A stretch of DNA of 64,000 bases from a virus. Below, piece by piece: positions 2,778-49,670 of the stretch. The position numbers were made by a program, and so were the translations under genes. Each line of letters opens with the position of its first letter. Position 1 is the first letter of the stretch. Below the pieces are notes generated by a model that saw only the letters and a list, made by a program, of their open reading frames with translations, had not been told where the DNA came from and made no database searches. The stretch lies in IMG/VR virus record IMGVR_UViG_3300010278_000003; one strand, 5' to 3'.

Positions 2778-5700
2778 TTATCTCCTATAAGTACGCTGTA
2801 AAGCGTCAGAACTAAGAGTTTTTAATTGACTAATAAGTTCTTCTCCATTTGAAACGTTAGGAAGTACTAATTTATCAAAGTTATATCTATATACAATATT
2901 GCTTGTTTGAGGTCTACTTACATTATCAAGACTCTTAACAAGAGTGTTAACACCAGTAAACATATCAGAATATACATTGGCAAAAACGTCACTTTGTACA
3001 GTACTGCTCTTAAATATATCAGGTATTTCGACAGGAATTAAATCATCAGGTATGTTAGAGCCATTTTTCATTTTATCATAAGTCTTTAAAATGGCTTGCG
3101 ATTCGTCATGAGGGAATACTTGATCTCCATACTCTAAGTATGTCTTTCGACCTTGTGTTGTATTACGTAAAATAAGCTCTTTGCCTGCATCATCTACTAT
3201 TGCATGATGGGGAATTTTAATTTTGTCCGTACCTTTTGCATGTCGTGTAACAGTTACACTTGTTGTACTACCCGAACTGCTCTTAGTTTCTGACTTTGTA
3301 TTACCTTTTGAGTCTGTTGTTACATTAACAGTTACATTGGTCGAACCACCAATTATACCTGAACTATTAGATGAATCACCATATTTATTTCTAATAGATT
3401 CTGCTTGTTGGTGGTATTGGTGCATTCCTTCTTTGTCGCCTCTTGCTTCAGCTTCTTTATAGGCATCCTGTGCTTTTTTAATGGCATCTTTATCAGATTG
3501 ACTATAACTATCTCTGTATGTTCCATCTGAAGAAAAGTCGCCCCTTTTGTTTCCACCACCATTAGAGCCGCCACCAGACGAGCCACCTCTATATATTTCT
3601 CCGTTTTTAGTATTGATTGTTCCTACTAGAGTGTTGGTTGCTTTATCTACAACTTCAACTACACCATTAAGTCCTTCTTTTAAATCGTAAGCTCCTTCGC
3701 CAAAAGTATCATTCAAAATACCCATAGCATCAGAGTTTTCTTTTAGTTTATCAGAATTGGATTTAATGTTTTTATCTTGTCTATCGGCAGAAATCTTAAG
3801 GTCATTATACTGTTTATTATAGTCAGATCTATAAGCTCGATTAGCATCTACATTACTACCAGGTTCGTAATTAGGGTCATTGACAATTTTATCATAAATT
3901 TTATTAAAGACATCGCTATTATAAATATCCTCAGCATTAGGAATTTCTGTGATATTATCTACTATATCCGAGAAATCAAGGGCAGTATCACTATATCCAG
4001 TTTTAACTAAATTATGATCCCTATCATAGCTAAGACTTGTTACTTTTTTTCCAGAAGCATCATAAGAACCAACAGATGATTCGCTATTTCCATTTTTGGC
4101 ATTCAGTATCTCTCTATAAACTCTCTCAGCATCTTCACGAGCTTTAATAGTTGCTTTTTTATCGCCATTGCTTCCAGTGTTGACCAAATCTAATAGGTGT
4201 TTAGTATATTCTCTACTATTAGGGTCATTAAGCCATTCATCAAGAACTCCCAATTCAATCATTTTATTAAGAGTGCTTTGAGCGTGTTGTCTGTCAGTAT
4301 AACCAGAAGGACTACCTGTAATATAGCTATTCTTAAACCAATCTTTATTTGCAGCAGTAGTGTGTCCATGTATATCGTTAAATTGATAAAAACCATTACC
4401 AATATAAGAAGTATTGTAAGATTTAAAGAAATCTTCAAAATTATCATACTTCTTGCCACTATTATAGCCAGCGTTTTTATTAGCATTTACACCAGAAACT
4501 TTTTCACCTTTTTCACCAAAAAAGCTAAGATAATAATCTCTTGCAGACTTGTAAGCATCGCTATCTTCACCAACAGTTTCCTTAAGCTGTTCAAGACCTT
4601 TTTTGAACGTGTCTTCGTCTATAAGGATTGGATTATCATTGCCATCATAGGATACTCCCGGAAGACGAGTACCATCAGCATTAATGTTACCACCATTTTG
4701 TGTTCCTTTTGCAATACTTTCTGCAACACCGCTTGATACAGCATCTTTGATATCATCAGGTAAACCTTGCATTGTTATATTGAGATTATCAACCGAGTCG
4801 GTTGCATCATCAACATACGAAGAATTGGTAGATACTGCGGAAGTATTAGTATTTAAGCCAGTGGTATTTTTTGAAGTATTAGTGTTTGATTGATCAATGC
4901 TTTTCTTCGTAACTAAAACATTGTCATTTAATACCTCAATAGTACCAGTATAAGCATATTGTCCAGCATTATTATCATCAATTTTAGTTATTAAATCTTC
5001 AACTTTTTTCGAATAAAGACCAGTGATTGTACTTTGATATACACCAGCTTCGTCTTTACGAGAAGGGTCTACTATCTCATAAACACCACCACCTGTTAAT
5101 ATTCTATCACCAACTTTTGCACCAGCAGGAGCTGTGCCGTCTTTATTGGCATAATAATATGTAACATCTTTAGTTGTAGTTTCAGGATGATTTACTCTTA
5201 TAAGATTAGCTATTCTGCCAAATAAATCTTCATATTCATTAAGAATATCCTGTGCTGTCTGCTTTGTTATTTTTTCAATATCTTCACAAACATTGTAATA
5301 TTTATCACCGAAATCTTCGACATCAAGAGTACAATCGTTTACACGTTCTTCCCAATCACTACCAAAAATATTAGAAGCTTTTAACTTATCAGCAGCCTCC
5401 TGCCATTTGTCAGTGATTTTATCCCACATATCTTTGTAATCGTTAAGGGCATCAATTTGTTTTTCAATGTCATTGATACGCTGTTCATTTTCAAAGTCTG
5501 CGAGGTCTTGTTCTTTTTGCTTAATATCATCTTCATCGGCTTCGTAAGTCCAACCAATTCCTTTACGGTAAATATGTACAACTTTATTTTGTTTGGCTTT
5601 TGATAAAGCTTCTTTTAACTGTGCTAATTTTAAGGCACGGTCTTGCTCATCATTAATTGCCTGAAGTTCTTCTTTTTGTTTCTCAAGAGCTTCTATATTA

Positions 5701-8700
5701 TTCTCTATAACTTTAATTACAGCATTTTTAGCAGAATCGTATTTATCTCTTTTATCCTCAAGTAGTTGTTTACGAGCTTCCTTTATACCATTAGATGCAT
5801 CCATTAATTGCTTAATAAGCTTTTGAACTTTCTCAGATGTATTATCAAGTCCTTGTGCGTAAGCATCATTAAGCTCTTTTAATGTTGTAGTAATTTCCTC
5901 ACCAAAAAGCTTAATCTGATCTTCGGTATTATTTAATTCTTTAGCAACACTTATCTTAAACTCAATATCAGTGATTTTATCATCATATATCTGTTCTTTT
6001 AATGACTGTAAATCATCATTATATTGTTCAAGGGTATAATTATTATCTTGCCAAGTAACAGCCAAATCTTTATTGGCATCAGCCATTTCCTCAGTCTTGT
6101 TGATTAAATCTTCATAATAATGAATAAGCTCATTAGTATCTTCTTGGTCTTTACCTTTAAGTTCATTAAGATGTTCTAAATTACTAATATGAAGCTTGTC
6201 CGTATAAGGGTCATAACTAACATCAAAATTCTTTGCTTTTAACTCTGCAACATTTTTCTGAATTTCCTTATCTCTTGCTTCGTTTAATGCTTCGATTGCC
6301 TTTTGCTCTTCTTCCATTGCCGTAATGCGGTCTTTCATAAGAGCAATTTTTTCTTCATTTGTCTTAGCATTATCATATTTTTTGTCTATAGCTTCACGTT
6401 TAGCTTTCGCATCTTCATAGGCTTCGGTAAAGTTACGAAGTGCATCTATTTCTGCTTGATAAGCTTCGGTTTCAGAGCCGCCACCGCCGCCTCCGCCGCC
6501 AGAACCGGAAGAATTTCCAGAATCTTTTGAAGTATTAGATATAAGATTACCATTAATATTTCCAACACCCGTGGTAGCCGTTGTAGAACCAGAGGTTTTC
6601 TTAGTTGTTTTATTTGAGGTTGAAATATTAACCTTGCTTTTTAAACTTGATCCCATACTTCTAGCTATTTCAGAACTTGACATCCCCTCGTATTTAGTTC
6701 CCGCATATCTAACCTTGCTATTACCACCTAAAGAAAATAAAGGTAGATGACCGCCAGTAGCATTTATTTTTGAAGCAATATTATTCCATGTACTTTTTAA
6801 CGAATCAAAATTTCCACCTACACTAATAACAGCACTCGAATTGGAAATACTATCTATGGTATTGTTTGTTGCAGTTACAGCGCTTGATGTGTTAGCACCA
6901 ACTTTAACAGTAGGATTTGAATTATTAACTTTTGATTCGAACTTGGTTAATATATTTTCAGCTTGTTTTGGATCAGCCGTAAATGTTATTACACCATTTT
7001 GATCTGTTTTAACATAATCAAGTTGAGTTTCTACACCGTCAACATTTGCTGTAAAAACAACACTTCCATCTTGTTGCTTTACTGCTTCTATAGTTTGTTC
7101 AACACCGTCAACATTTGCTGTAAAAGTAATAACAGTTCCAGCAGCCATAATACTAATTTTGTTCATAAGAGACTGAAGACTGTCAGCATTATTAATTTTA
7201 GTATCTATAGTTAAAGTGTGAGGAGTTGAGAAAAACTCATTCCAATATTCTACAAAATCATCATCAGAAGCACTTGATATATCAATATTCTTTCCGTCAA
7301 GCCAATTATTAAACTCATCTAAAAGTTCAAGATACTCAGTTTGTTTTGCTTCAATCTTCTTCTGCATCTGCATTATTTCATCGTCACTTGCAGTTCCAGA
7401 AGTAACTCTTGATTGCATTTCGTCCGTTGCTTCGTCTATACCAGATTGAAGAGCAGAGACATAATCATTTGCTATTGTATCTATATTAGTTTGGTCTTCA
7501 AGCATTTTAATGGCTTGATCATTGTACGAGAGCAAAGAAGAATAATCCTCTTTATTTTCGTTACCAAACTTCATTTTTGTTTTTATTTTATCAATTTGAT
7601 CATATAACTGCTGTAAGTTATATTCAAATTTAATTGGAATGTCAAATCCTTCAGTTAAGGCTGACATGTCATCATTAAATCCTGCAACCTGCTTATCCCA
7701 ATTTTCAATTAATTTTCCGAGTTTTTCTTTTCTTGTGCCATCCTGAAGGTCATCATAAACATCTCTTAAAGAAGATATTTCATCTTTAATTTTCTCTATT
7801 GTTTGATATGTATCCTCTACATCATCAAACACAAAGCCATAATCCGACATTGACTTTAAAACCGCACTGACAACCTCAACACTTGTACCTAACTTGTCAG
7901 CTACTTCCTGAGTACTTTTAAAATGTGTTTTAATATTTCCAGTACTTTTGTCGATGTCCACAAGAGTAGGATCTACTTTTTTCAAATCATTCCAGAAGTT
8001 CCACATAGAAGCAGTTTGATCTTCTGAATTAAACCATCTTGATACTTTCTCGTAATTTTTCTTCCAAGCATCAGCATATGCATTTGCAGGAATGGTATAG
8101 GCAGAAGTATCTATTTTTTGAGGATTCATCCATTGTGCAACCGATTGAAAGTCATCAGTACCAATAAAACCACCATCAAATAATTTTTTTGCCTTTTCTA
8201 AATAATCAGATAAAGATGTCCAATCAACACTTGAATTTGCCGATTCAAAGGCGGTTTTTACCGATTCTAAAGTACCGCCTAACACGTTTGCTACATCTTC
8301 TCCAGCTTCTTTGGCTTTTTCAAGAGATTTACGGTACTCGTCAACTGCGTTCTTTGCGTCTTGATAGCTTTTTATTGTATCGTTATCAATGCCCATACTA
8401 ACAGTACGTAATTCATCTTCTGAAAGACTGTTAAAATATGCTTCATATTGAGATGTGTAAGTAACAGAACCTTTTTTGTCTGAAAAGAATTGTTTAATTC
8501 GATTCTTATAATCGTTAGTATCTATCTCACCAATTTTTATATTTACAGTTACAACATCGTTCTCAATTTTATTAGCCATATCAAGATAATCTTGATATAA
8601 TTGTTCCATCTTAGTCTTTTCTTCTTGATCATCGTCATAGACACCAGCATCAAGATACTTTTTAATCGTATCTGCATATTCAAGATATTCTTTCTCAGTT

Positions 8701-9517
8701 TCAAGAAGGGTAGAATTATAATCTTGAAGTTTTTGTTTGGACTTATCTATGTCGTTTTTATAAAGATTAGCAGCAAACGTATTACCTGCATCTGCCATTT
8801 CTTGGGCAGCTTTGGTATAAGTATCTAACTGTTTTTCTACTCTTTCGATATGAAACATAGTATTTCCATATTTTTGAGCACTTTTACCGACCTTGCTACT
8901 TCCAGATTTACTACTAATTACACCTTCGTTTAAAAGACCGCCTCTACCATACAGTTCGTTCTCGGCTAATTTCTTTTGTTCCTGCTCATAAATCTTTTGA
9001 TCAAGTTCAAGTCTTTGTTGTAAATAATCTAAACGAGATTGTTCCGCTTCAGTTAATCCACCTTCATCACGAAGAGCAAGAAGCTTTTTCTCTTCTTCTT
9101 CAAGAGATGATATTTCGGATGAAAGATTGTCAACTATCTCTTGCTGTTCTTCAAGAGTAACATTCAGTTTATCCCAAACCCACATACCTGCTTTAATAGC
9201 TAAATTAACTGCAAGCATAATACCTATGTTTTTAGCTGCATCTAATGCTGCTTTGCCAAATTTAGCGAATTTGTCGGATGAAGCACCAATAAATGAAGCA
9301 TATTGTTCTGCTACATCCTTAGAATAATCACAAGTATTAGTAAACTTTGTTAATTCACCATCTGCGAGTTCAAAATCTTTTGCAAATTCTAATATTTCAC
9401 CTTCATTATTAAAAATTTTTCCTTGTAAGGCTTCAAGAAAATTACTTTGATTTTCTGTCAGTTTTTTAAAGAATGAGCTAAATATTGTACTCCAACCATT
9501 TTCGCCATGATTGACAA
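2778..9517 (-). CDS. Tape measure protein, exon 2 (C-terminal ~2246 codons)
   Basis: The 2146-aa ORF frame is open 107 codons upstream of the called ATG (to 9539) and that ATG lacks an SD. Long coiled-coil protein. Joins exon 1 in frame at 9517. Confidence 0.85.
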
Positions 9518-9539
9518 CGTTGTTATAAAATGGTATATT
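9511..9539 (+). promoter_or_regulatory. sigma-A promoter (extended -10) for the antisense cargo genes, straddling the 3' splice site
   Basis: TTGACA 9511-9516, 17-nt spacer, TG at 9531-9532, TATATT 9534-9539; SD AGGAGG 9573-9578 before ATG 9586. Confidence 0.75.
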
Positions 9540-9585
9540 TTAGTTAATCACTTGAGTTAAATAACCTAAATTAGGAGGGAATATT

Positions 9586-10125
9586 ATGGATGATATCACA
9601 TACAAATTTGCACGTCATGGAAAAATATTTAAATGTCCACACTGCTACGAAACAGGTGGCAATTTAGAGGAATTTAGTAAAACTGCCTCTAAGTTAAATC
9701 CGAATCATAGTGAAAAATTAAAAGAATTCGCAAAAGGTTATTTAGGATTAAGTTTAGATCCACCATTTACAGATACCTGTCCGTATTGTGGAACTAAATT
9801 AATTGACACAGGAATCTCTTTTGATGATGCTATTACAATAAGAGATTTTAGCGATTTCAACAAAGACATATTTAATATGATGATTGATTTACATCAAAAA
9901 GATTTAATAGAATATACAGCTAAAATCAATATGATGAAAGCAAACATAGAAAAAACAAAGATGATTAAAAAAGAAATTGACACAACTCCCAAATGCCCCA
10001 AATGCGGTTCTACAGCTATCACTACAGGAGCGAGAGGTGCAAACTGGGCATGGGGATTTATAGGAGCAAGTCAAACGGTTAACAGATGTGGTAACTGTGG
10101 TTATACTTGGAAACCAAAGAAGTGA
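9586..10125 (+). CDS. Intron cargo: double zinc-ribbon protein
   Basis: Four CxxC pairs (CPHC, CPYC, CPKC, CGNC), a short hydrophobic GANWAWGFIG segment and a strong SD. Confidence 0.75.
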   Translation: MDDITYKFARHGKIFKCPHCYETGGNLEEFSKTASKLNPNHSEKLKEFAKGYLGLSLDPPFTDTCPYCGTKLIDTGISFDDAITIRDFSDFNKDIFNMMIDLHQKDLIEYTAKINMMKANIEKTKMIKKEIDTTPKCPKCGSTAITTGARGANWAWGFIGASQTVNRCGNCGYTWKPKK

Positions 10126-10166
10126 GAAGGGTGTAATACAAAACACATTAATCTATAAAAGGAGAT

Positions 10167-10535
10167 TTGGTTATGAAAAACACACAAAATATTGCATCTC
10201 TCATAGCTCGGCTTGAGTACGAGATTGGAAGAGAATGCTATAATCCAAATTCATATGATGGATATACGGGAGTAGAAGGTCGTGGATATAGATATCCAGT
10301 AAAAGTTTATCAAAACGAAAATATGAGAACATATCGTTATATGATATCAGAAATTTCTCCATCAGAAATTCATACAATGAAGTATGTGTTCGGATCTAAT
10401 CATTTATTTATTGGCAAGGGAATATATAATATTCTCAACACACTTGAAAGAAGATATGGTTTAGATTTTAACGAAATGGAAGAAAACTTAAGCAATAAAC
10501 CAAAAGATGATATTCCGACTACTCGTTTCATTTAA
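10167..10535 (+). CDS. Intron cargo: hypothetical protein
   Basis: 122 aa, SD AAGGAG. Confidence 0.7.
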   Translation: MVMKNTQNIASLIARLEYEIGRECYNPNSYDGYTGVEGRGYRYPVKVYQNENMRTYRYMISEISPSEIHTMKYVFGSNHLFIGKGIYNILNTLERRYGLDFNEMEENLSNKPKDDIPTTRFI

Positions 10536-10578
10536 ATAATGATAAAATATTCCTAACAAATATAAAGGAGAGACTATA

Positions 10579-10857
10579 ATGTATACAACAGATTTCAGCA
10601 TATTCACTCAAATGGTAAATATGGCGAAGCAGAAGAATTTAGATTATATTATTATGTATTCATATCACTCAATTAGTGGTGGCAAATATTCACATTCATA
10701 TTCTTTTGTATTATCAACAAATCTATTTACTGTTACCTTTAAAAAGAAATTTGAAGAAGGGAATGATAATGCTGTACGAGGATTTATTCAACATAATGAT
10801 TGTGTCAAACTTAATTGTGATATGATAATTGAAAAAGATTGTGTTGAATTACATTAA
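10579..10857 (+). CDS. Intron cargo: hypothetical protein
   Basis: 92 aa, SD AAGGAG; stop overlaps the stop of the convergent gene. Confidence 0.6.
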   Translation: MYTTDFSIFTQMVNMAKQKNLDYIIMYSYHSISGGKYSHSYSFVLSTNLFTVTFKKKFEEGNDNAVRGFIQHNDCVKLNCDMIIEKDCVELH

Positions 10858-11087
10858 AAATGTCTATCTTTTAATAATTCCAAAAGACGAATTTTTAAAT
10901 CGTATTCATCCCACTCAAGTTCAGAATACATCTTTAAGGCTTCACTAATTATGAATTCGTCAGATTCAGTTTCTTCCGAATGATTGAATCTGGCGAGTAG
11001 TTTCTGATATTCTACAATTTTATCTATATCAGGAAAAATTTCATTATGTGTTAATTTTTTTGATTGTGAATTTATTTTATCTATCAA
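10854..11087 (-). CDS. Intron cargo: hypothetical protein
   Basis: 77 aa, SD GAGGTG, TTG start. Confidence 0.55.
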   Translation of the reverse strand: MIDKINSQSKKLTHNEIFPDIDKIVEYQKLLARFNHSEETESDEFIISEALKMYSELEWDEYDLKIRLLELLKDRHF

Positions 11088-11141
11088 ATGATTTTCACCT
11101 CGATTTTATTATTATAAGTATTCATACAGGGAGGAATACAT

Positions 11142-11429
11142 ATGAAAAAATTATATTGTCCATTTACTAATGGTAGCTGTAATAACGATTGTATTATGAA
11201 TAATAATTGTTTTGAAGAAAATAATTCTCAAAATTGTATGTTACTTAAATCTGTCGAGTCAATTATATCTTTTGTTAACGGACTTTCGGTTGTAAATAAA
11301 GACACTGAAAAATACTTAAAAAGTATAAGTGACAATACCGGGGACGATCACTCATACTCCTTTGAAATTAACAACAAACTTGATTCGATTAAGAATCTTT
11401 TAGAGGAGATTATTCAGAACGAACAATAA
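11142..11429 (+). CDS. Intron cargo: Cys-rich N-terminus, coiled-coil hypothetical protein
   Basis: 95 aa, CPF...C...C...C...C pattern, SD GGAGG. Confidence 0.65.
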   Translation: MKKLYCPFTNGSCNNDCIMNNNCFEENNSQNCMLLKSVESIISFVNGLSVVNKDTEKYLKSISDNTGDDHSYSFEINNKLDSIKNLLEEIIQNEQ

Positions 11430-11622
11430 GATTCTTAATCTTATTTTCAACAATTCTAAGTAAACCAAAAGCCTGATTGTATGTTAAATTATTTGAGGTT
11501 ATTTCTGAAATTATTTTATCTGACAATGGGGAAATAACCTCTTTTTCAAAATTTTCGTTTTCAGTTTGTTTTTTAATTATTTCTTTAATACTTTCATTCA
11601 TTTCTTTAATATTTTCGTACAT
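11410..11622 (-). CDS. Intron cargo: hypothetical protein
   Basis: 70 aa, SD AAAGGA. Confidence 0.55.
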   Translation of the reverse strand: MYENIKEMNESIKEIIKKQTENENFEKEVISPLSDKIISEITSNNLTYNQAFGLLRIVENKIKNLIVRSE

Positions 11623-11736
11623 TTTATTTTTCCTTTCAATCCGTAGTTAAATATTTTTACTTAAAAATAACTCATACATAGTATTGCAGTACGTACCAAA
11701 GTGTGAGCCTAATATTTTAGAAAGAGTGATAAAATA

Positions 11737-11943
11737 ATGGGATTATTTACCGCTATTATAATTTTTATTATTTTAGCAATCGCCGCAGCAAGTCACGGCG
11801 ATTTTTCTGGTATGCAAATAATAGGAAAAATTGTAGGAGTTATAGCAATGATTGTTATAGTAGCTGTTCTACTAATGAATCCAGTTTTGTTGGTTGCTGC
11901 ACTTATAATTGTTGCTATAATAGCGTTAACCCATAAGAGCTAA
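11737..11943 (+). CDS. Intron cargo: small multi-pass membrane protein
   Basis: 68 aa, almost entirely hydrophobic, 2-3 likely TM segments. Confidence 0.65.
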   Translation: MGLFTAIIIFIILAIAAASHGDFSGMQIIGKIVGVIAMIVIVAVLLMNPVLLVAALIIVAIIALTHKS

Positions 11944-12134
11944 TGACAATAAAAAAGTGGGGCGATACCCACTTCTTTACACATGTCTATTAACAAACAG
12001 ACAATATTATTCCGTTTCGAATACTTTCGGATAATTTTTTCAGCATCTTCTTTCGATGACAAATTATATTCTTTTAAAATATCCGAATAATATGTGTCAC
12101 ATTTAATAACAAGTAACTTAATATAATCTTTCAT
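11940..12134 (-). CDS. Intron cargo: hypothetical protein
   Basis: 64 aa, SD AAGGGG, co-directional with the upstream HTH gene. Confidence 0.55.
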   Translation of the reverse strand: MKDYIKLLVIKCDTYYSDILKEYNLSSKEDAEKIIRKYSKRNNIVCLLIDMCKEVGIAPLFYCH

Positions 12135-12162
12135 AATTACACCCCTTATTGTGTATAATAAT

Positions 12163-12363
12163 TTAGTATGGGAAAATGTCTTCTATTCGTAAATTTAAAG
12201 CTTTGCAAATTTTAATAACAGTACTAAATCTTGGATCTGAATATCCATCTTCTATCAAACTGATACTTGTTTTATTTACTTTTGCTTTTCTTTCCAATTC
12301 ACGCAAAGATATTTTCCGTTCTTCTCTAATTCTTTTAAGATTGTTTTTCATATGCATCACCAA
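12163..12363 (-). CDS. Intron cargo: XRE/Cro-type HTH regulator
   Basis: LKRIREERKISLRELERKAKVNKTSISLIEDGYSDPRFSTVIKICKAL is a classic HTH_3 pattern. Confidence 0.85.
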   Translation of the reverse strand: MVMHMKNNLKRIREERKISLRELERKAKVNKTSISLIEDGYSDPRFSTVIKICKALNLRIEDIFPY

Positions 12364-12951
12364 TAATATGATGTGTTACATCTAAAAGAATTATTTATAC
12401 ATATATTACTACATACAATGGGTTATGTATTAGCCATATGGAAAAATTTTTAATTAATTTAACTTTCGACAAAATCATATTTTATTTTATAACCTTTTAT
12501 AACCTATAACATTCCCAAGTTATTATAGGCTTGTGTGATATGTACTAAGCAGGGCAGTAGAGTAATACTCTAAGTTCGTTTCCCTGTTCGCTTCTTGCAG
12601 CCTTTCGCCACAGTAACGGACTGTATGTTGCAATCTATAAAAATAGACCGTATCTTGTCAGCCTCTCGCACGATATAACATCTTGAAATCACACTTTCAA
12701 TTAACATTTATACCGTGTCGGAACTACCATTTTCGTATCAATAATCTATGATACTTAGTTGTGACACACCCACATGGAGCTTTTATTGCAGTGTCATCAA
12801 TACCTATAAATAGGCTTACGGCTTCCTCCGATATTCGACATATTTAGGATTTCTCCAAGGATTATGTCTACTTGATGAACGACCATCTTGTAGAACACCC
12901 ACTATTATGCATAGTAGGGGGTTTGTAACCATGACTTGTAACTATACGTTA

Positions 12952-15900
12952 GCCCATAACCTTTAGCACCAGCAACACCAGAAATAATTGTTCCTATACT
13001 GCCAAGTGTTCCAACTTTTTCTACAAGAAAATCTAAAGCTTCAATCAGCTTTGTCAGACCTTCTAATACAACCTTTATTGCATCACTATCAAGAAGTGAA
13101 TTTGACAAACCTTCAAAAGCAGCTTTTACTTCTTTTGTTTTTGCTTCAACGCCTTCTTCATATGCGCCAAATTTTTCCATTGCTGTACCAGAAGCATTAG
13201 CAGCAGTTTCAGCATATTTTAAAGCATTAGGATAGTTTTCGAAAAGAACGAGTAATTTTTCAGACTGAGCTGCACCTGCCATTGCAGTCACAATAGCTCT
13301 CTGTTCTACTGAAGTAAATGTATTCCATCTACTTGCAACTTCGTCAATTACATCACCAAAGTTTCTAAATTCATCCTTACTATCACGCAGTTTAATATTA
13401 AATTTCTTAAGAACTTTTTCTACATCTGATAAATCTTCACCGTCATCAGAAATGAATTTGCCAGCCTTAACATTACCCATACGTGAGAATATACGTTTAA
13501 AGGCATTACCGACAGAACTCATGCTATCCTGTGTTGTTTCACCTACAACAGCAGCATATCCCAATAACTGATCCATTGAAATACCCATTGTTCGTGCAGA
13601 GTTTGCAGTTTCTGCCATAGCTTCAGCAAGACCACCAAGAGATACAGCAACCTGAAGGTCAACCGCAGACATTTTATCTACAACATTCATGGCATCAGAA
13701 GCTTCAAGCTTATAACCTTTTAAGGCACTTGTAAGATACTGAGTTGATTCGGCAGAATCAAGTTGACCAACTTTAGACTGTACCATACTGGCTGTTATAA
13801 GATTATTAGTGTCTTCAAGCGAGTAACCCTGTCTTAACCAGCTATCGGCACTTTCCGCAACTTCTTTTGTAGTAGCACCTAAAGTTTTTGCCATACCATT
13901 ATAGGTTTTCATTAGCGAGTTAACATAATCTTCATTCTCACCAGAAGCTATCTGTAAGTTTACAACAGACTCGTTATATTCTTTCGCCGCATTATAAACC
14001 TCAGTAAATCCACGCTGAATATTTTGTAATGCGTTTGCACCAACAAAATATTGAGCTAAGTTTTTAAATGTGGTTTTTAACGTATCACCTAATGTTTTAG
14101 AATTATATCCTGCTGTTTTAACATCATTTGAGAAATTTCTAAATTCACCAGAAAGATCTTGAATATCCTTTCTTGCTTCTCTGATGGATTTTCCATCAAA
14201 ACTATCAGCAAAACCATTTTTAACCCGATCAGCCTGTTCTTTAATCATAATCAGTCTGTTATACATCTCATCAAACTGAGTTACTAATTTTTGAGCTTCG
14301 GGTTTACTTGATGCAAACAATTTTGTATTTGTAGCTTTATAAGCATTAAATTTGGACATTAAAGACTCTGTTTGTTTTATAATAAAATCAGTGTCAGTAA
14401 CATCTTTTTGGTCAGCTTTTGCTTGAGTTTGGGCTTGAGCAACTTGTCTACGTGCTGCTGCATTTTTTAAAACAGCTTCAGTATTACTATCAATTTCAGC
14501 CTTTTCTCTTGCAAAAGCCTCTGTATCAAAATTACCACTTGCTTTTGCATTAGCTAAAGTAGAAGCATATTGTTTTCTTAAAGCCTCAATATTTTCATTG
14601 TTAGCTTTTATTACAGGGGCGTTTTTGACAGGATCTTTTTGGAGAACTTCATTATCTTTTCTTAATTTTTTTATATTATTTAATAACTTTGTAAGCTTGG
14701 TTAGATAGTTTATATCATCTGATTTGTCACTATCTGTTGCGACAGTATCAGTTTCAACAACTTCTTTTTTTTGCTTTTCTACTTTTTTTAAAGCAACTTT
14801 AGTTTTTTCTGCAGAATTAGATGTAGCTTTACCGAAATTGTCTATGGCGTCCTGTGCTGATTTAAATGTTTGTGTTAAAGTTTTTGTTTCACCATTAATA
14901 TCAGATATCTTTTTATTAATTGTAACAAATTCATTGCTGTCAACACTAATAGTATATTCATCACCAAGATTTAAACTATTTTTAATTCGTTGAGCTGCAT
15001 CTAAAGTTTGTTGATATGTAAGAGCAGGGGAAGTTTCATGATCAAAATTAGCCAATTTTTCTTCCAATAGATTGATGTTTTCAATTATAGGTTTTAAAAT
15101 TTCATCAAAAATATTTCCATCTGCATCTATTTTTGCCGAAAAAGTTTTCCAAGCCCCATTAGCATCTTTTATTTTGGCTGTGACCTGCACAAGACCTTCT
15201 GCTAATCCATCAGTTATAAGTTTAGCATCAACAGAGTTACCTAAAATTATATTATCATTTTCAGTTAATTTCTTATTTGCCGCAGTTATATAATCATTAG
15301 AATTGGTGAAAAATTCATCTTCAGAAATTTTTTTATATTTAGAATATTTATTTTTTTTTGCCTTTTTGGGGTTTTTAAAATCTTCTGAAGATCCACCTAA
15401 ATTAGAATTACTATCATTAGATGACTCTTTAACTTGCTTATTTGCCTCGACAAATTCTTTCTTTGCATCGGCAGCTTCACGAGCAGACTTGGCAATCTGA
15501 TTCATTAACTCAGCTTCAAGTTTCAAAGGGTTTTCCGAACTATCAATAGAAGATTGTACTCCTTTATTGGCTGTTGCAAAATCTTTCTTTGCTTGAGCAG
15601 CATCATTAGTTGCTTTCTCCACATTCTCAATACCGTTTGTTTCAGATTTAATGTCAGTAGAAGAATCAGGAAATGCGTCTTTCTTTTGATTAGAAGCCGA
15701 TGAAATATTCGTTTTCTGAGGAGAAGTAAGATCGTTATTTCTAACATTCGCTAATTCAGTTTCAAGCTCTTTAACTTTGTTTGTAAGATTAATTATTTCT
15801 TCAACTGAAGTATTTACATTTAAACCATTCTTGAAAATATCCGGTAATGTACTTACTGCTGTCGAAATTTCTCCAAGCTTACTTACAATAGTGGAAAGTT

Positions 15901-16813
15901 GACCAATAACTTCAGACAAATCAGTTTTGCCAAAAATGTCATTTACAGCTTCAGTTCCGCCATTAGTACTTTTTTTTATTTCGTTTTGAACTTTCGTAAT
16001 TTGTGCTAATGCTGAAGAAGCTTGAGTCCAATAGCTTTTATCCGTACCTTCACGTATTATATCGTGTCCACCATACAATGATTTGGCTTCTTTTCTTGCG
16101 TTCTTGATAAAATCTATATAAGCTTGAAGTTTTTGCATAGAATTATCATACTGATTTATATCAAAATCAAAAAATTTATCAGTAAGTGATCCAGCCGCAC
16201 CTGACATTTTTATATGATTAAATAGATTCTGATAAGATTGCAAAGCACTTGCAATTTTTGCTTGTAATTTTCTATCTAAATCCCCATCTGTGCCAACATC
16301 TATATTCATATTAAATCCAAGATTTTGAGTTTTTGTACTTAATTGAGATATAGAATCACTAACTTGTTTAATTGTTGTAAGCAGGGGAGATAATTCGTTT
16401 CCATCTCCAACATCTGATATTACTTTTTTTATATCAGATAAATGTTTTTCAATGTTAGAAAAAAGCTCTATTGTTGATTTTAATTGCTTTTCATCAATTA
16501 AAGATTTTCCTATTCCCGTATTAATACCTTTACCCGATGCAAAATCTTTAATTATTTTCTGAAATTCTTTTAAATCTTTTGCAAACTGTTCTTTTCCGTC
16601 TGCTACAACTTTAATTTTATAATCAGTAGTAGAAAGTTTCTTTTGTACTTTGTTTAATTCTTTTGCAAGACTTGCATCCGATAAATCAAAGAAAATTTCT
16701 AATTTATTATTCTCCAAATCTCTTTGTGCAGAAGAAATTGCCTTAAGAGCTTGAACCGATACATCATTTTTATCTATAATAATACTCGCTACTAATGAAG
16801 CTACCTCAGCCAC
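12952..16813 (-). CDS. Tape measure protein, exon 1 (contains TP901-type TMP core)
   Basis: The segment AKTLGATTKEVAESADSWLRQG...VVDKMSAVD...GNAFKRIFSRM is typical of the TMP core. The unspliced frame stops at 12905, inside intron hairpin P2. Confidence 0.88.
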
Positions 16814-33205: not shown

Positions 33206-33276
33206 TAGGGCATAACGGACTCGAACCGATACTCACGGGATGAAAACCCATTGTCTTACCTTTTGACTAATGCCCT
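33206..33276 (-). tRNA. tRNA-Glu(UUC)
   Basis: Acceptor AGGGCAT/ATGCCCT, anticodon loop TT-TTC-AT, T loop TTCGAGT; one T-stem mismatch; no encoded CCA. Confidence 0.8.
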
Positions 33277-33280
33277 AAAA

Positions 33281-33355
33281 CGAATCGTATGAGACTTGAA
33301 CCCATGTTATTCTACCGTGACAGGGTAGTACCATAACCAACTAGGCAAACGATCC
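33281..33355 (-). tRNA. tRNA-Asp(GUC)
   Basis: Acceptor GGATCGT/ACGATTC, anticodon arm CTACC-CTGTCAC-GGTAG, T loop TTCAAGT. Confidence 0.85.
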
Positions 33356-39830: not shown

Positions 39831-39911
39831 TACAGCTAACCAGACTCGAACTGGTACGGAATATCCGGTGGATTTTAAGTCCACTGCGTCTACCAATTAC
39901 GCCATAGCTGT
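39831..39911 (-). tRNA. tRNA-Leu(UAA)
   Basis: Acceptor ACAGCTA/TAGCTGT, anticodon arm GTGGA-CTTAAAA-TCCAC, long variable arm CGGATATTCCG, T loop TTCGAGT. Confidence 0.92.
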
Positions 39912-43006: not shown

Positions 43007-44446
43007 TTAGATTCTTGCAACAGTATCTTTATTTGTTGCTACAACTTTTGTTGTTTTAGAGATTTTTGAAATTCTATTTTCTAATTCTTCTTTAAACTTA
43101 ATTTTGTTTTTATCACCATGAACCAACCAAATTACATCACAACCATTGTTTGCTAAATTAGTGTAATAGTTTTGTAAATCTTCGAACTGCATATGTGAGC
43201 TAAACGAATCTAAGCATTTAATATCACAGCGATTGTAATATGGTTTTTGGTCTATGGTAATTGTTTTTTGAGATGGGTTATTTTTTATTTTCCAACCAAT
43301 ACCACCTTCAGCCATATAACCACAAGTTAAAATGGAACAATTACTTCTTGGTAATATCTTTTTTAAATATAAAATACTACGTCCCTGTGTTAACATGCCT
43401 GATGATGAGCATACTATTTTGGGACTGTCATCTGCTACACAAGCTATGCTTTCCTCAACTGTACGTATAACTTTTATATTTTTCCATGACATCATTCTAT
43501 TAAATTCTTCAAGCCAATAACCCTCCAAGTTGTTTCTAAAACAATCAAGTAATTTAACTGCAAGAGGGGAGTCAACAATTATTGGAATGTTAAATTCTTT
43601 ATCATCTTTAAATATATTCCAAAGTGTATACAGCATTGTTTCTGTTCGTTGTAGCGCAAAAGTGGGAATAAGAACTATTCCTTTATGATCAACACATGTT
43701 TGTGTAATGACATTCTTTATTGTTTCTATGTCTTTTTTTCGTTGATCCTTTTTTACGGATCTTCTTTTATCATTGTAAGTCGTTTCACCAATAAACATAG
43801 AACATTTTACAACAGGTGATAGTTCTTCAACAAAAGGTTGTTCGAATAAAATATTTCCTAAATCGCCTGAATAAGCAATTTTTTTAATAACCCCAGAGGG
43901 CAATTTGATGTATAGTTCTATTTGACAAGAGCCAAAAATATGACCTGCATTTATAAATTTAAACCATACATTTTCTGTGATATAATGTTCTTCGTTTTTT
44001 GAACATCCACGAAAATATTTAAGTGAGTTTTCAACATCATCAAAGTTGTAAACTGGGATATGTTCACGCTTAAATTTTCTGTTAAATGCTTGTACATCTC
44101 TTTCAAATATTTTTGCAGAGTCTTCTAACATAGGTCTAACAAAGTCAATAGTTTCTGCTGAAATATAAAAGTTGCAATGTGCTCCGTCATGAACTAATTT
44201 TGGAAGTAGAGCATAATGATCTGCGTTAATGTGAGATATTATAACTGCTGTAAGTTCTGAAGGCTTAAAATCAAATTTTCGTCTATTAATTTTATAGTCT
44301 TCATAAGGTTTTGAAGTTTGATAAATACCACAATCCAAAAGAATTTTTTCTCCTGTTGGACATTCGATCAAATAACTACTTCCAGTTACATCACATGATG
44401 ACATTCCCACGCACTTAACAGTTACTTTATCTTTTTTCTTTCCAAT
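43007..44446 (-). CDS. MBL-fold beta-CASP nuclease (extended to a probable ATT start)
   Basis: VTGS, LLDCG, SHINADH, AGHIFGS, YSGDLG, ETTY, IPTFALQR, FSSH, LVHG. Confidence 0.88.
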   Translation of the reverse strand: MGKKKDKVTVKCVGMSSCDVTGSSYLIECPTGEKILLDCGIYQTSKPYEDYKINRRKFDFKPSELTAVIISHINADHYALLPKLVHDGAHCNFYISAETIDFVRPMLEDSAKIFERDVQAFNRKFKREHIPVYNFDDVENSLKYFRGCSKNEEHYITENVWFKFINAGHIFGSCQIELYIKLPSGVIKKIAYSGDLGNILFEQPFVEELSPVVKCSMFIGETTYNDKRRSVKKDQRKKDIETIKNVITQTCVDHKGIVLIPTFALQRTETMLYTLWNIFKDDKEFNIPIIVDSPLAVKLLDCFRNNLEGYWLEEFNRMMSWKNIKVIRTVEESIACVADDSPKIVCSSSGMLTQGRSILYLKKILPRSNCSILTCGYMAEGGIGWKIKNNPSQKTITIDQKPYYNRCDIKCLDSFSSHMQFEDLQNYYTNLANNGCDVIWLVHGDKNKIKFKEELENRISKISKTTKVVATNKDTVARI

Positions 44447-44717: not shown

Positions 44718-44789
44718 CAGGGTGTACAGGATTCGAACCTGTGCATATAGGAGTCAAATTCCTAGGTCTTTCCGCTTGACGAACACCCT
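44718..44789 (-). tRNA. tRNA-Gln(UUG)
   Basis: Acceptor AGGGTGT/ACACCCT, anticodon arm TAGGA-ATTTGAC-TCCTA, T loop TTCGAAT. Confidence 0.9.
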
Positions 44790-46401: not shown

Positions 46402-47160
46402 TCAGTTTCTTAGTAATTTTGCACAAATTCTTTTGCGATTTTTCTCGTTTTCTTCAGCACATTGTGTGCAATACATTTTTTTGTTACCAGTATCCTTTAT
46501 CTTTTTTCCACAACATTTGCACTGTTTATATCCTTTTTTAAAGTTTCCTATGTACTGATTGCCAATGTTTTCGAAAGAGGTGAGTTTATAGGCGATAGTG
46601 CCGGGAGAGGAAAGAGGAACACGGATATTGAGATTGTCAATTTTCTTACCAAAACTGATGTAACCATTAATATATAATTCGTGAAGTAACTCATTTTTCT
46701 TATCAGATGGAAGTGTTACATTAGCAAGTTTGAATACTTCGGACAAACCTTTTAAATTCTTCTTGTTTATCCATCCGTCACAATTCATATATCTTGCTAT
46801 AGCAAATAGGGTAAACATAAACTTTTTTTGACGGTCATTTGGAAGGGTTTCTATAAGGGACAATTCTTCTTCATAAATAGGAATATATTCGAGTTCTCTA
46901 AAAAGATTTTCTGTTTCTAACTCATATAAAGCTGTACATGATTTTTTAATTTTTTTATAATACTTATACTCTTGGTATCCATCCAAATTAAATTCAAGCA
47001 TTTTTTCTTTAACAGTATTAATAAGTTCATTTGCTTCTTTATTTTTATCAAAATAATATTTCGCAATTAAGGTTATCAAATATCCATTGGATAAATCATC
47101 AGGTTTGTTTTTAGAGGCAAGTATGTTTCTAATATAATCTCTTTCGTTTAATATATACAG
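46402..47160 (-). CDS. Hypothetical protein with C-terminal Zn finger, coupled to the RNAP gene (probable CTG start)
   Basis: CKCC...YCTQC; frame open to a CTG at 47160 overlapping the RNAP 3' end. Confidence 0.65.
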   Translation of the reverse strand: MYILNERDYIRNILASKNKPDDLSNGYLITLIAKYYFDKNKEANELINTVKEKMLEFNLDGYQEYKYYKKIKKSCTALYELETENLFRELEYIPIYEEELSLIETLPNDRQKKFMFTLFAIARYMNCDGWINKKNLKGLSEVFKLANVTLPSDKKNELLHELYINGYISFGKKIDNLNIRVPLSSPGTIAYKLTSFENIGNQYIGNFKKGYKQCKCCGKKIKDTGNKKMYCTQCAEENEKNRKRICAKLLRN

Positions 47161-49670
47161 TTTTCTTCACCATCCATTTCTTTCAATTCTTCTAAACGTT
47201 TAATTATCAATTTCCCAATACAATCCCAACAAAACTGTCTATTTCCCTTGTAGCCATAGGTCATATCAAGTATTATATTCATACGTTCATCATCATTAGG
47301 ACATATTTCTGCTGCTTCGTTTCTAAATTTTTTAATCATATTAACTCTTTGATAATACCTATCAAATTCATCCTGTTTGTCTTTTCTTGCCTTATATTGT
47401 TTTATACATTCACAATAATACTGCTCTAATTCCTTTAAAGCTTGTCTATGTTCTTCAGTACAGCGTCTTTTTACTTTTAATTTGTTATAATCAAACGTAG
47501 AATTTTTATGTAATTGTGATTTATAGCCATCCAATTGACTTTCAACATATCTACATATTTTATTCATAGAACAATTGCCTATACCAACGGGCATTTTTCG
47601 TTCATACCAAAATAAAAATTCTTTTTGTTCGTCTGTCAAATTTTCTTTTTCACTTAATTCTTGAATAGAACATTTATAAATTGCATAACACTTTGCGTTA
47701 CTTTCTTTTACATACTGTTTATATTGTTTTTTTGTTTCATCATAAACATAAATCATAAAATATGGCTTTCTATAAGCGCATAAAGACTGTAGACGTTTAT
47801 CATCACCACAAGCACCGAGATTATACCAATATGCTGGCATAGGAGTTGCAACAATCCCTTTTATACGATCCAGCTCATTCTGCTGAAACAACTGTCCACA
47901 TTCAATTCTATACTCCAACTCTTTGTATTCTTCAGAATTTTTTTCAAAATGTGATTGAACTTCCATCATAGAAGTAACATAGTTTGTAATAGTACCAACT
48001 TGATTACCCATACCATCCTTGTTTGTTTTCTTTACAGCACTTTCAGTTACTACAATTTTTTCTGTATTACGCTGTATACATTCAATAGCAGGTAAATATC
48101 TATAACGTCTTTTAAGCACAGGATTGTTAGTGGAAAAATTAAGATCTGAATCGTAATCTTCACCATTCTCAGCCATACAGAATGAATCCCAACCATTAAT
48201 AATTATTATAGTGTCCATGTATTGATACCAATATTTACACTCGTCCGAAGAGTTTATCTTACACATTCTTATATTATTATGACTTGTCATTGGGCTTCTA
48301 AACACAACTACTTCGTCTTCATTTTTATTAATCCAGAATTTTGAATATATCTCATCAGATTTTAACAATCCAGTAACCTTTAAACCACAAATTGATTGCA
48401 TAAGAGCAAATGGATCTCCACTTGCGATTTGGTAATTACCTTTTACAAACAATTTTCCAATCTTGGCATCATTCATTTTTTTCTTAATATATCTATGTGT
48501 GGAGTCTATTATATATGGATCGCCAAGCATATATTCACTTGTATACAAGGCTCTTTGCCATGAGTTAACATCAGTATTTTCATTAATTCCAAGAAATTTG
48601 ATAGTTGAGTTATAATCTCCACACATAGCATCTTTTAGATAATTAATAGTTGGAGCACATAGTTCTTCTATATCTTCTTGCGTAAAATCATAAGACTGTA
48701 AATATTGATAGTTTAACTCTCTTTCCTCTTCAAGAACATGAGATGAAATTTTAGTAACTGAAAAGCCATAACCACACTCTCTATAAGCTGTAACATAATC
48801 TTCTATACAATCATACGCACTCCATAATTTAAGAGAAGATTCCGTTAATATCATTTCACATTTACGTAAGTCCTGTGTATTGCCCCAAATATCTTCAATC
48901 ATATAATTTCCATTATTATATTTTTCAATAAATTCATAAATTGGAAAAGGGTAAAGCATTCCTTTTAACCATGCATTTCTTAAGCATACACCACTTGGAG
49001 TATATGTAAGATTTAATGACCTTCCGACTCTTTCCATATATTGAATTGTACAAAGATTAAAACCATCAGATATATTATTTTCAAGCGTTTTATCATGAAT
49101 AATTTCACGTTTTGGTTCTTCGCCACTACTGTCATCAAGTGAAATAACATCAGCTATATATTCTGCTATACAATCTTTAACAACCAAAATACCATTTGGT
49201 TCACAGATAGGCTGTGAAGCAGAGCAGGTTAGAGCTTTATATGCTTCATATTTTGCAGGTACTAATTTTATTTCAGGGTTTCTTTTGCATTCGCATAATT
49301 CGTTTAATTTATCAATATATTCAGAATTGCAAAAGAGTAGGGTATTATTTTTTAAACCACCTGTAGTCCCAACAAAACGTCTATAATTAATACCATTTAC
49401 TATTACTTCTTTTTTACCAGTAGCCCTTGTAAAATCTGTTTTTGTATCTATTACAACTTGAAGAAAAATTTTAGAAAAGTCTATATCTTGAATGTTTTTA
49501 TGTAGTATTTTATTTGCCATTATTAAAAAATGTCTTCCTTCAAACAGCGAAATAAGTTCCTGATACTTAAAAGCTTCTTTTGCAGAAATTGTTAAATTCC
49601 AATTAGAATATTTTAATTTGTTTGTTCCAATTTTGAAAATTTCATATTGAGGTACGCTAATTCCAGCCAT
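47148..49670 (-). CDS. YonO-like single-subunit (double-psi beta-barrel) RNA polymerase
   Basis: 840 aa; DGFNL, R..W.KGML, FRSP, NGEDYDSD (DxDxD), ELDRIKG; heads the late arm as yonO does in SPbeta. Confidence 0.85.
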   Translation of the reverse strand: MAGISVPQYEIFKIGTNKLKYSNWNLTISAKEAFKYQELISLFEGRHFLIMANKILHKNIQDIDFSKIFLQVVIDTKTDFTRATGKKEVIVNGINYRRFVGTTGGLKNNTLLFCNSEYIDKLNELCECKRNPEIKLVPAKYEAYKALTCSASQPICEPNGILVVKDCIAEYIADVISLDDSSGEEPKREIIHDKTLENNISDGFNLCTIQYMERVGRSLNLTYTPSGVCLRNAWLKGMLYPFPIYEFIEKYNNGNYMIEDIWGNTQDLRKCEMILTESSLKLWSAYDCIEDYVTAYRECGYGFSVTKISSHVLEEERELNYQYLQSYDFTQEDIEELCAPTINYLKDAMCGDYNSTIKFLGINENTDVNSWQRALYTSEYMLGDPYIIDSTHRYIKKKMNDAKIGKLFVKGNYQIASGDPFALMQSICGLKVTGLLKSDEIYSKFWINKNEDEVVVFRSPMTSHNNIRMCKINSSDECKYWYQYMDTIIIINGWDSFCMAENGEDYDSDLNFSTNNPVLKRRYRYLPAIECIQRNTEKIVVTESAVKKTNKDGMGNQVGTITNYVTSMMEVQSHFEKNSEEYKELEYRIECGQLFQQNELDRIKGIVATPMPAYWYNLGACGDDKRLQSLCAYRKPYFMIYVYDETKKQYKQYVKESNAKCYAIYKCSIQELSEKENLTDEQKEFLFWYERKMPVGIGNCSMNKICRYVESQLDGYKSQLHKNSTFDYNKLKVKRRCTEEHRQALKELEQYYCECIKQYKARKDKQDEFDRYYQRVNMIKKFRNEAAEICPNDDERMNIILDMTYGYKGNRQFCWDCIGKLIIKRLEELKEMDGEENCIY

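Follow-up and report, generated by a model that had tools for sequence, protein, structure and literature searches.

Group I introns have been described in the tape-measure genes of Bacillus cereus-group prophages (TMP-IVS1/2/3; Tourasse and Kolsto 2008, PMC2504315). They belong to types IA1/IA2, are of ordinary size and detectable by known models, and carry at most a (partial) endonuclease gene. In the IStrons CdISt1 and BcISt1 a group I ribozyme is joined to an IS200/IS605 or IS607 element; the ribozyme is of type IA2 with P7.1/P7.2, and the cargo is one transposon (1–2 transposase genes), which mobilises the element (PMC4227781). The ND5-717 intron of hexacorals and corallimorphs is organellar, holds ordinary mitochondrial genes in P8 and shows no cargo turnover between close relatives (PMC6545197). 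Finally, the moron or accessory-gene islands of phages consist of small genes with their own promoters, including toxin-like and regulator genes, which are swapped between close relatives.

The locus analysed here lies in a window of 64,000 nucleotides (the whole stretch of viral DNA that was analysed) and can be set beside each of these systems. Our analysis makes it likely that the tape-measure gene of this uncultured SPbeta-like phage of gut Lachnospiraceae is interrupted by a group I-type self-splicing intron that works by the mechanism set out below. The putative intron has its core at the 5' end, its cargo in a distal 3' loop and its omega-G at 9518, all as placed by an earlier, sequence-only reading of this DNA; that reading knew of no description of such an arrangement, and the introns and IStrons above are its nearest precedents. 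It shares with TMP-IVS1/2/3 the host gene, the setting in Firmicutes prophages, insertion in conserved stretches, several introns per gene, the adaptation of different introns to one site via P1 and P10, and the frequent lack of a working homing endonuclease (PMC2504315), but its core escapes RF00028, its P1 is formed on two intron strands, its P10 is 13–22 bp long and its 3' loop holds, across relatives, 1–9 kb of unrelated genes. Like an IStron it has a 5' ribozyme, a foreign block placed after P9.x, a distant 3' splice site beyond that block, an RNA stem that closes the block, and tolerance of unusual 5' splice-site bases (PMC4227781); unlike an IStron it has no transposase among the cargo genes searched, its cargo (up to a dozen genes) changes and lies on both strands, and its site is fixed in one gene. 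With ND5-717 it has in common an essential-gene group I intron, fixed in its lineage, that harbours many unrelated genes (PMC6545197). Small genes that have their own promoters and are swapped are a trait it shares with moron islands, which lie between genes, whereas the island here lies inside a coding sequence and would be harmless only through RNA splicing.

The split tape-measure gene

The tape-measure gene is on the minus strand and is found in two pieces, 16813-12952 and 9517-2778. The two open reading frames have the coordinates and lengths that were first given for them:

12905-16813, minus strand: open reading frame on the exon-1 side, 1302 aa
12952-16813, minus strand: tape-measure exon 1, ending in ..GAKGYG and the opening base of a Leu codon
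9518-12951, minus strand: putative intron, 3434 nt
2778-9517, minus strand: tape-measure exon 2, beginning at codon position 2 (UU GUC AAU..)
2778-9218, minus strand: open reading frame on the exon-2 side, 2146 aa

A PhageMin_Tail domain lies near the 3' end of exon 1. Joining 12952 to 9517 reproduces the single 3533-aa frame proposed earlier (..KGYG-L-VNHGENGW..), and intron-free homologues (P0003, P0131 and others) align through the joint, which falls between ..KG[YF] and a hydrophobic residue; the split interrupts a conserved motif which the intron-less homologues have in one piece. On the exon-2 side the frame is open from 9539 to the first ATG, GTG or TTG at 9218, a run of 107 start-less codons, and exon 2 itself has no start codon in its initial 100 codons and no ribosome-binding context.

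These features bear on a decidedly improbable alternative, in which the insert is a decayed, non-splicing relic: either the phage would produce its tape measure as two proteins, or the prophage would be defective and the island a plain insertion. Gene callers do annotate two separate tape-measure proteins in all relatives, as such a reading would have it; the missing start and the interrupted motif speak against it, as does the finding that no intron-less allele of greater than 52% identity exists among the 5.8 billion proteins searched, which indicates that the lineage persists with its intron. The split would also explain the "two tape-measure genes" that are called in many gut phages.

Ribozyme fold, exon guides and intron ends

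A group I-type ribozyme (P1–P9.2) can be folded from the 5' ~450 nt of the insert; its predicted elements are:

12955-12963, minus: 5' exon bases -12 to -4, pairing with intron 12866-12858 (second exon-binding site, or P1 extension)
12923-12935, minus: P10 guide for the 3' exon, GUCAUGGUUACAA, pairing with exon 2 9517-9504 (13 bp, one bulge)
12920-12923, minus: P1 internal guide AACC, pairing with 12954-12951
12898-12918, minus: P2 hairpin, its loop holding the in-frame stop of exon-1 read-through (12907-12905)
12867-12894, minus: P2.1 hairpin
12858-12866, minus: P1-extension intron strand, CAUAAUCCU, part of which was used earlier as P3
12837-12840, minus: 5' strand UGUC of the probable P3, pairing with GAUA 12654-12651 (UGCC/GGCA in relatives)
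12669-12831, minus: P4-P6 domain, with a branched P5 extension
12831-12826/12723-12718, minus: P4
12822-12818/12730-12726, minus: P5
12717-12708/12678-12669, minus: P6
12618-12665, minus: catalytic core (P7, P3', P8, J8/7, P7')
G12665, bulged A12664 and 12663-12659, minus: P7 5' strand, with P7' at 12623-12618
12650-12631, minus: P8
12630-12624, minus: J8/7
12617-12615, minus: P9.0 5' strand GUU, partner AAC 9521-9519
12613-12594, minus: P9 with GAAAG loop
12586-12550, minus: P9.1
12530-12502, minus: P9.2
12514-12520, minus: P9.2 loop ACUUGGG, complementary to intron tail 9556-9550
12484-12493, minus: clamp strand GUUAUAAAAU, complementary to 9531-9522
9550-9556, minus: tail partner of the P9.2 loop, CUCAAGU
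9518-9531, minus: intron 3' end, with clamp strand 9531-9522, AAC 9521-9519 and omega-G 9518

The fold was tested on nine type-A sequences, the relatives being from gut metagenomes; these nine represent only about five lineages, three of which are mutually close. In them 98.4% of cells are paired, and both-side changes are seen in 35 pairs, compared with 16.2 in shuffles (0 of 500 reached the observed value) and at most six with slid partners; for the 5' 481 nt, minimum-energy folding gives z = -2.7. Every one of the helices P2, P4, P5, P6, P7, P8 and P9 can be found, including the bulged A of P7 and the GAAAG loop of P9, and the eight relatives keep them. Compensatory changes occur in P2, P2.1 (three pairs), P7 (two pairs, in which G-C is swapped for C-G and C-G for G-C while the bulged A and the adjoining G-C, the guanosine site, are invariant), P8 (three pairs) and P9. 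P4, P5, P5a and P6a are invariant in all nine sequences, which is compatible with the fold and leaves covariation uninformative there, and P6 and P5b vary compatibly with pairing.

The P3 of the earlier reading, AUCCUUG/CAAGAU, was rejected. Neither the window nor one relative (L015) keeps this pairing intact, and its 5' strand (12863-12857) covaries with the exon instead; the strand is part of the second exon-binding site, which makes P1 13 bp long. P3 is probably better placed at 12840-12837/12654-12651 (UGUC/GAUA), where the P3-P7 pseudoknot that is a feature of group I introns would form with a P3 of only 4 bp and one compensatory pair. Another stem, GACAUA/UAUGUC (12868-12863/12842-12837), is not conserved in L007 and was treated as chance. 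The shortness of P3, a J3/4 of 5 nt and an extra hairpin upstream of P3 speak against the group I reading. P7.1/P7.2 are absent from the fold. The P9.0 pairing of GUU with the AAC before G9518 had already been proposed and is supported by one compensatory change (GC/GC in other lineages). The search with group I covariance models that had been suggested as a check went the other way: at E<=10, RF00028 fails to match the window, its sub-windows, L001/L002 or the type-B core, and at the gathering threshold Rfam gives no group I match for the window element, sub-windows or relatives. RF00028 works in this setting: another intron, from a related tape-measure gene, scores 40.9 bits with it.

The composite P1 has 13 bp, four to 12923-12920 and nine to 12866-12858. 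Five of the nine extension pairs show compensatory changes, columns 11–14 covary with 47–50, and the -2 pair is G-C in three sequences and A-U in six (GUCAU as P1 guide was dropped for this position, which aligns among relatives). The last base of exon 1, C12952, faces A12922, so that C.A replaces U.G at the 5' splice site in the window and L001, and U.G is present in the other seven of the nine type-A sequences; a C at this position is exceptional (PMC4227781). P10 is 13–22 bp long across six lineages, its value in the window (E -13.4) being reached by 6 of 300 shuffles and those in the five other lineages by none of 300, and three exon-2 substitutions in L001 all preserve the pairing; in type B, P10 is not significant. 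At the distal end, every lineage has the P9.2 loop-tail pairing 37–44 nt ahead of its 3' splice site; the pairing shows a compensatory change and is the predicted closure of the cargo loop. The 10-bp clamp (12493-12484/9531-9522) is confined to the window lineage (3 of 300 shuffles), L001 retaining it with one U.G; it is not significant elsewhere and was rejected as a general feature. All type-A introns have a terminal G, and all six that were compared end in ..CG.

The guides covary with both exons and the core keeps compensatory changes, which requires selection on pairing. The window intron is very probably spliced. The covariation across lineages argues against the decayed relic, to which the C.A at the splice site and the lack of an Rfam match would otherwise lend themselves. 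It also makes it hard to credit that the insert is removed or bypassed in some other way, by DNA excision before late expression or by translational bypass, since the conserved RNA structure and exon pairings would then have no role; in addition, the borders have no direct repeats and no transposase or recombinase was found in the window cargo. We know of no ribosomal hop remotely near 3.4 kb.

In the mechanism that we favour, a late transcript would run across the entire 3.4-kb insert, and the ribozyme would form from its 5' ~450 nt (P1–P9.2). The 13-bp composite P1 would hold the 5' exon and the 13-bp P10 to 12935-12923 the 3' exon, and the distal intron end would be returned by the P9.2 loop pairing with 9556-9550, by P9.0 (GUU/AAC) and, in the window lineage, by the 10-bp clamp. 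Guanosine-initiated cleavage after C12952 and subsequent attack at omega-G 9518 would yield the mRNA for the 3533-aa tape measure. The loop from P9.2 to the tail, structurally unconstrained, could gain and lose small accessory genes with their own promoters by recombination. We infer the transcription through the cargo, the catalysis, any benefit from the cargo and the absence of a coding cost.

Cargo and relatives

The cargo loop contains the following genes, in addition to the zinc-ribbon gene considered in the last section:

9532-12483, both strands: cargo loop, ~2.95 kb, nine open reading frames of 64–179 aa
12163-12363, minus: XRE-type helix-turn-helix gene, first cargo gene, sense orientation
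11940-12134, minus: small cargo open reading frame
11737-11943, plus: small cargo open reading frame
11410-11622, minus: small cargo open reading frame
11142-11429, plus: small cargo open reading frame
10854-11087, minus: small cargo open reading frame
10579-10857, plus: small cargo open reading frame
10167-10535, plus: small cargo open reading frame

The seven frames in 10167-12134 have no match to a known family, and three pairs among them converge with overlapping 3' ends. Pfam, PHROGs, NCBIfam and PADLOC find no homing endonuclease (LAGLIDADG, GIY-YIG, HNH, His-Cys or PD-(D/E)xK) in the window cargo, in agreement with the original description of nine cargo genes in place of an endonuclease, and PADLOC finds no defence family apart from the helix-turn-helix. 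The relatives' cargo frames that were scanned (three in L009, one in L005, two in L007, six in L018 and two in L015) include no transposase. A terminator-like hairpin, recognised by eye on the sense strand near 11975-11950, is the terminator part of a weak STnc290 match; it and the convergent cargo genes could stop a host polymerase short of a full-length transcript. The window phage encodes a YonO-like RNA polymerase (47148-49670), and the YonO of SPbeta ignores pause signals and reads the late operon as a single unit (PMC5467207).

It is improbable, in our estimation, that the ribozyme joins exons from separate RNAs (trans-splicing via P10 and the loop-tail pairing) or needs a helper such as the zinc-ribbon protein. 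The unusually long P1 and P10 guides, the conserved loop-tail pairing, cargo of up to 9 kb on both strands, the sense-strand hairpin and weak minus-strand promoter-like sites at 9733-9704 and 9618-9590 would all suit such a scheme, and coral ND5-717 is a precedent for a giant group I intron with a non-standard transcript (PMC6545197). However, promoter-like sites in the region barely exceed those in shuffles (35 versus 23.8 +/- 4.9), L005 has the same pairings in an intron of just 1 kb, which shows that they are not peculiar to long cargo, the encoded YonO-like polymerase is processive, and the zinc-ribbon protein has no RNA-binding or maturase fold (below).

Six true relatives were kept from a metagenome motif scan (L014, L016, L017 and L021 were discarded as chance GC-rich matches). 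Neither DNA searches nor a protein search with exon 2 gave a match in a phage collection; scanning viral and genome contigs for exact motifs, and genome contigs for related loci, likewise yielded nothing. A conserved core with variable cargo had been predicted, and this is what is seen: the ribozyme of L001 is 99.6% identical to that of the window and its cargo is rearranged, and relatives carry 1–9 kb of other cargo genes, including RelA/SpoT-like, MazF/PemK-like, PIN/NYN and Bro/ANT genes. The site after ..GAKGxx is occupied in tape-measure genes whose proteins are only 22–25% identical, by ribozymes that are ~70% identical in DNA. Another ribozyme type, with a classical AAGGUAUAGUCC element, occupies it in L002, L004 and L005, and a further type in L009; additional introns occur in these tape-measure genes, one of them RF00028-positive. 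A covariance model of the type-A core (R1) finds type A only, and not types B, C or the RF00028-positive intron, and no sequence-level link between ribozyme types was found.

The intron thus seems to let an essential gene house a store of exchangeable genes. If splicing is real, an essential structural gene of a phage can conceal an island of toxin, regulator and defence-type genes whose content changes, simple deletion of the island would destroy the tail gene, and the island travels with its intron between very different phages. Multi-gene group I introns, hitherto an organelle oddity, would extend to bacterial viruses, and natural ribozymes with 13-bp and 13–22-bp guide pairings that tolerate kilobase inserts would be of interest for RNA circularisation and trans-splicing designs.

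The antisense zinc-ribbon gene

The gene adjoining the 3' splice site, and the promoter match that faces it, are as follows:

9586-10125, plus: zinc-ribbon gene, antisense, 179 aa, two zinc ribbons
9511-9539, plus: sigma-70-like promoter match, the best in this region (TTGACA, spacer of 17 nt, TG, TATATT), spanning the 3' splice site

The cargo is not freely variable throughout: this gene is kept in every relative examined and so may be part of the element. No acidic or His residue is invariant in its protein; the predicted structure (pLDDT 72) has no nuclease, RNA-binding or maturase fold, and Foldseek against the PDB gives only generic zinc-ribbon matches (E>0.1).

A broader reading, on balance unlikely, would make these elements a distinct class of introns, derived from group I and very widespread, whose dedicated role in phage tape-measure genes is to carry accessory genes. 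With their split exon-binding site, exceptionally long P10 and loop-tail clamp they would bridge up to 9 kb between exons, possibly even exons on separate transcripts, and their hallmark antisense zinc-ribbon gene, with its promoter overlapping the 3' splice site, would encode a new intron-associated factor acting in mobility, splicing control or lysogenic cargo expression. The zinc-ribbon marker falls into >1,100 clusters at 50% identity. Three distant members were sampled, and in both of the two with long enough contigs the gene faces a large open reading frame that begins with intron-tail motifs; in one of these two (L030) the homology of the facing frame to tape-measure exon 2 was confirmed.

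Split tape-measure gene

Two ORFs carry the tape-measure sequence:
16813-12905, - strand: exon-1 ORF, 1302 aa, with a PhageMin_Tail domain near its end
9218-2778, - strand: exon-2 ORF, 2146 aa, 3.7 kb downstream of the exon-1 ORF

The exon-2 frame is open from 9539, and its first ATG, GTG or TTG is found only at 9218, leaving 107 codons without a start. Joining C12952 to U9517 (..GGGC followed by UUGUCAAUC..) gives a single 3533-aa frame whose protein, expected at about 390 kDa, reads GYG-L-VNHGENGW across the joint. Long uninterrupted Clostridia tape-measure proteins, P0003 (52% identity) among them, align to the end of exon 1 (..AKGY) and on into exon 2, and the alignment of exon 2 with another homologue, P0131 (2550 aa), starts at the joint. 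The joined frame, the start-less exon 2 and these homologues show that the two ORFs are one gene in two pieces; frame and alignments thus agree with the sequence-only reading, which had joined them to the same 3533 aa. The exon-1 frame continues for 15 codons into the intron (12905-12951, -), and its stop falls within the loop of P2, before the catalytic core is reached, a position that would keep ribosomes off the ribozyme.

In related contigs (L numbers), too, gene calling gives exon-2-like proteins as genes of their own, and each of these contigs has an exon-1-like ORF ending ..GAKGxx and then an intervening block. Six more loci, from human-gut assemblies, were found by searching metagenomes with a 19-nt motif from the window's ribozyme. 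The same insertion site holds three types of ribozyme.

Ribozyme types at the tape-measure site (length of intervening block in brackets)
Type A: the window, L001 (3.4 kb), L007 (9.0 kb) and the metagenome loci L013, L015, L018, L019, L020 and L022
Type B: L002 (2.3 kb), L004 (2.9 kb), L005/L006 (1.0 kb); a textbook AAGGUAUAGUCC element
Type C: L009 (4.4 kb)

The host tape-measure proteins of type A share only 22–25% identity with that of the window, and the ribozymes share about 70% of their DNA sequence, so the type-A intron has moved from phage to phage.

Ribozyme structure and intron class

RNAalifold, run on the nine type-A sequences (alignment A3), recovers P2, P2.1, P5 with a branched extension, P6, P7, P8, P9 (GAAAG loop), P9.1 and P9.2, and so returns the P2, P5, P6, P7 with its bulged A, P8 and GAAA-looped P9 previously folded by eye. 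In the full structure used for pair counting, written by hand with P1, P3 and P4 added, 98.4% of 1135 cells are paired, and both-sided changes occur in 35 of 131 pairs (16.2 ± 2.6 in shuffles, 0/500); sliding the partners by 1–3 columns leaves at most 6 such pairs. In P7, the window has G-A-GGCUG/CAGUCC where the other type-A sequences have C-A-GGGUG/CACUCG, and two compensatory pairs flank a bulged A and a G-C pair that never change; a bulged base beside a G-C pair in P7 is the guanosine-site arrangement of group I introns. P4, P5, P5a and P6a are invariant in the nine sequences, so although the P4 and P5 of the sequence-only reading can both be drawn in the fold, covariation speaks neither for nor against them.

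The P3 register had to be changed. Its earlier 5' strand, within 12866-12858, was rejected, as this segment pairs instead with exon bases -12 to -4 (12963-12955), five of the nine pairs covarying with the coding sequence. A better P3 is UGUC (12840-12837) with GAUA (12654-12651), which is UGCC/GGCA in other type-A sequences (one compensatory and one wobble change). P1 is 4 bp (12954-12951 with 12920-12923), so that two distinct parts of the intron together form 13 bp with the 5' exon strand; P2 and P2.1 emerge between these parts. Exon 1 ends in a U that pairs with G in seven type-A sequences, and in a C opposite an A in the window and L001; group I introns have a C there only exceptionally (PMC4227781). 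Directly 5' of the P1 guide, the intron pairs with the first 13–22 nt of exon 2 (P10) in all six lineages for which both ends are available; only 0–6 of 300 shuffles reach its energy in these lineages, and the three exon-2 substitutions in L001 all preserve it.

Every type-A intron has ..CG at its 3' end; exon 2 then starts with UUGU.. or AUGU.., in codon position 2, which fits an exon 1 whose last base is always in codon position 1. The proposed P9.0 pairing of the GUU after P7 with the AAC before G9518 gains support from the GC/GC found there in other lineages. The P9.2 loop, with the sequence CUUGGAA (window: ACUUGGG), can pair with UUCCAAG (window: CUCAAGU), a motif of the intron tail 37–44 nt before the 3' splice site, and one compensatory change is seen; the equivalent type-B loop and tail are CUUCCAAA/UUUGGAAG. 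Only the window's lineage has an additional 10-bp clamp, formed by 12493-12484 and 9531-9522.

The structural hallmarks that can be checked by comparison are all present, yet the covariance-model search that the sequence-only reading had proposed as a check gave no match: RF00028, the Rfam group I model, does not score the element in the window or in the relatives scanned, while it finds a second intron in the L009 tape-measure gene (L009:2705-4800, 40.9 bits). We therefore call the element a group I-type intron, probably of a divergent lineage; it is very probably spliced. That second L009 intron contains a 450-aa ORF with a DUF4379 treble-clef zinc finger and, like a structured interruption of about 550 nt in L007 (L007:135-700; no Rfam match), lies within the PhageMin_Tail domain.

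The arrangement had been thought undescribed. This does not hold for group I introns in prophage tape-measure genes (PMC2504315), for the 5'-ribozyme/3'-cargo layout, which IStrons share (PMC4227781), or for group I introns holding many genes, as in coral mitochondria (PMC6545197); for a phage group I intron with a changing multi-gene load, our searches returned no description.

Variable cargo and a constant zinc-ribbon gene

Between 12483 and 9532 lie nine cargo ORFs of 64–179 aa on both strands, of which only an XRE-type regulator (12363-12163) has a known family; for seven of the nine, the identical protein is also recorded in other assemblies. The window and L001 introns have positions 1-457, 495-1242 and 2820-3434 in common at 97–99% identity and differ by one insertion and a swapped middle block. 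L001 carries a DUF2513 gene, L018 RelA/SpoT-like and PemK/MazF-like genes, and L007 NYN/PIN, Bro-N/ANT and PemK genes, so the predicted conserved core with variable cargo is indeed seen among related phages.

A 92-aa gene (10579-10857) and its convergent partner of 70–77 aa, whose 3' ends overlap by 4 nt (10579-11087 in the window; L023-L026:7001-7488), also adjoin smpB in Agathobacter-like genomes. Occurrence both in the intron and next to smpB marks the pair as a mobile cassette, and the smpB-adjacent copies point to a Lachnospiraceae host for the phage; Agathobacter and Lachnospira are the likely ones. The window's cargo has three tail-to-tail pairs of this kind. The 9-kb L007 cargo holds two similar, GC-richer, structured-looking elements of about 110 nt (L007:3235-3360 and L007:3655-3790), each ending in a hairpin and T-run, with no Rfam match at E≤1.

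An antisense gene with two zinc ribbons lies directly inside the 3' splice site in every relative of types A and B (alignment A4). It is under purifying selection, with 0/2/6 and 9/7/20 substitutions at the first, second and third codon positions. The aligned relatives have no invariant catalytic-type residues, and the structure model (pLDDT 72) gave no nuclease match. A profile search gave 1137 clusters at E≤1e-10; three distant members were sampled, and in both whose contigs were long enough to judge (the third was too short) the gene faces a large ORF beginning with the intron-tail motifs. In one of the two, L030, the facing ORF is homologous to tape-measure exon 2 (30% identity, E 4e-22). 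Of the promoter-like sites in the region, the best (9511-9539, +) spans the 3' splice site and faces the zinc-ribbon gene.

Transcription and other phage genes

Further genes of the window are:
47148-49670, - strand: YonO-type polymerase relative, 840 aa, with matches in SPbeta-like, Enterocloster and Clostridium phages
43007-44410, - strand: phage-encoded metallo-beta-lactamase/beta-CASP/RMMBL protein (RNase J/CPSF-like)
33206-33355, 39831-39911 and 44718-44789, - strand: four tRNA genes, in the structural and replication region

In SPbeta, the late operon is transcribed as a single unit by YonO, which disregards pause signals (PMC5467207); the presence of a YonO relative here makes transcriptional read-through of the cargo plausible. 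The sense strand has a terminator-like hairpin (GUGGG..CCCAC, then a U run) at 11950-11975 (-), within the end of ORF 12134-11940; it is absent from the pattern-scan list and is covered by a weak Rfam STnc290 match. The YonO-type matches in Enterocloster phages and Clostridium phage c-st are in two to three pieces, and these genes may be interrupted too.
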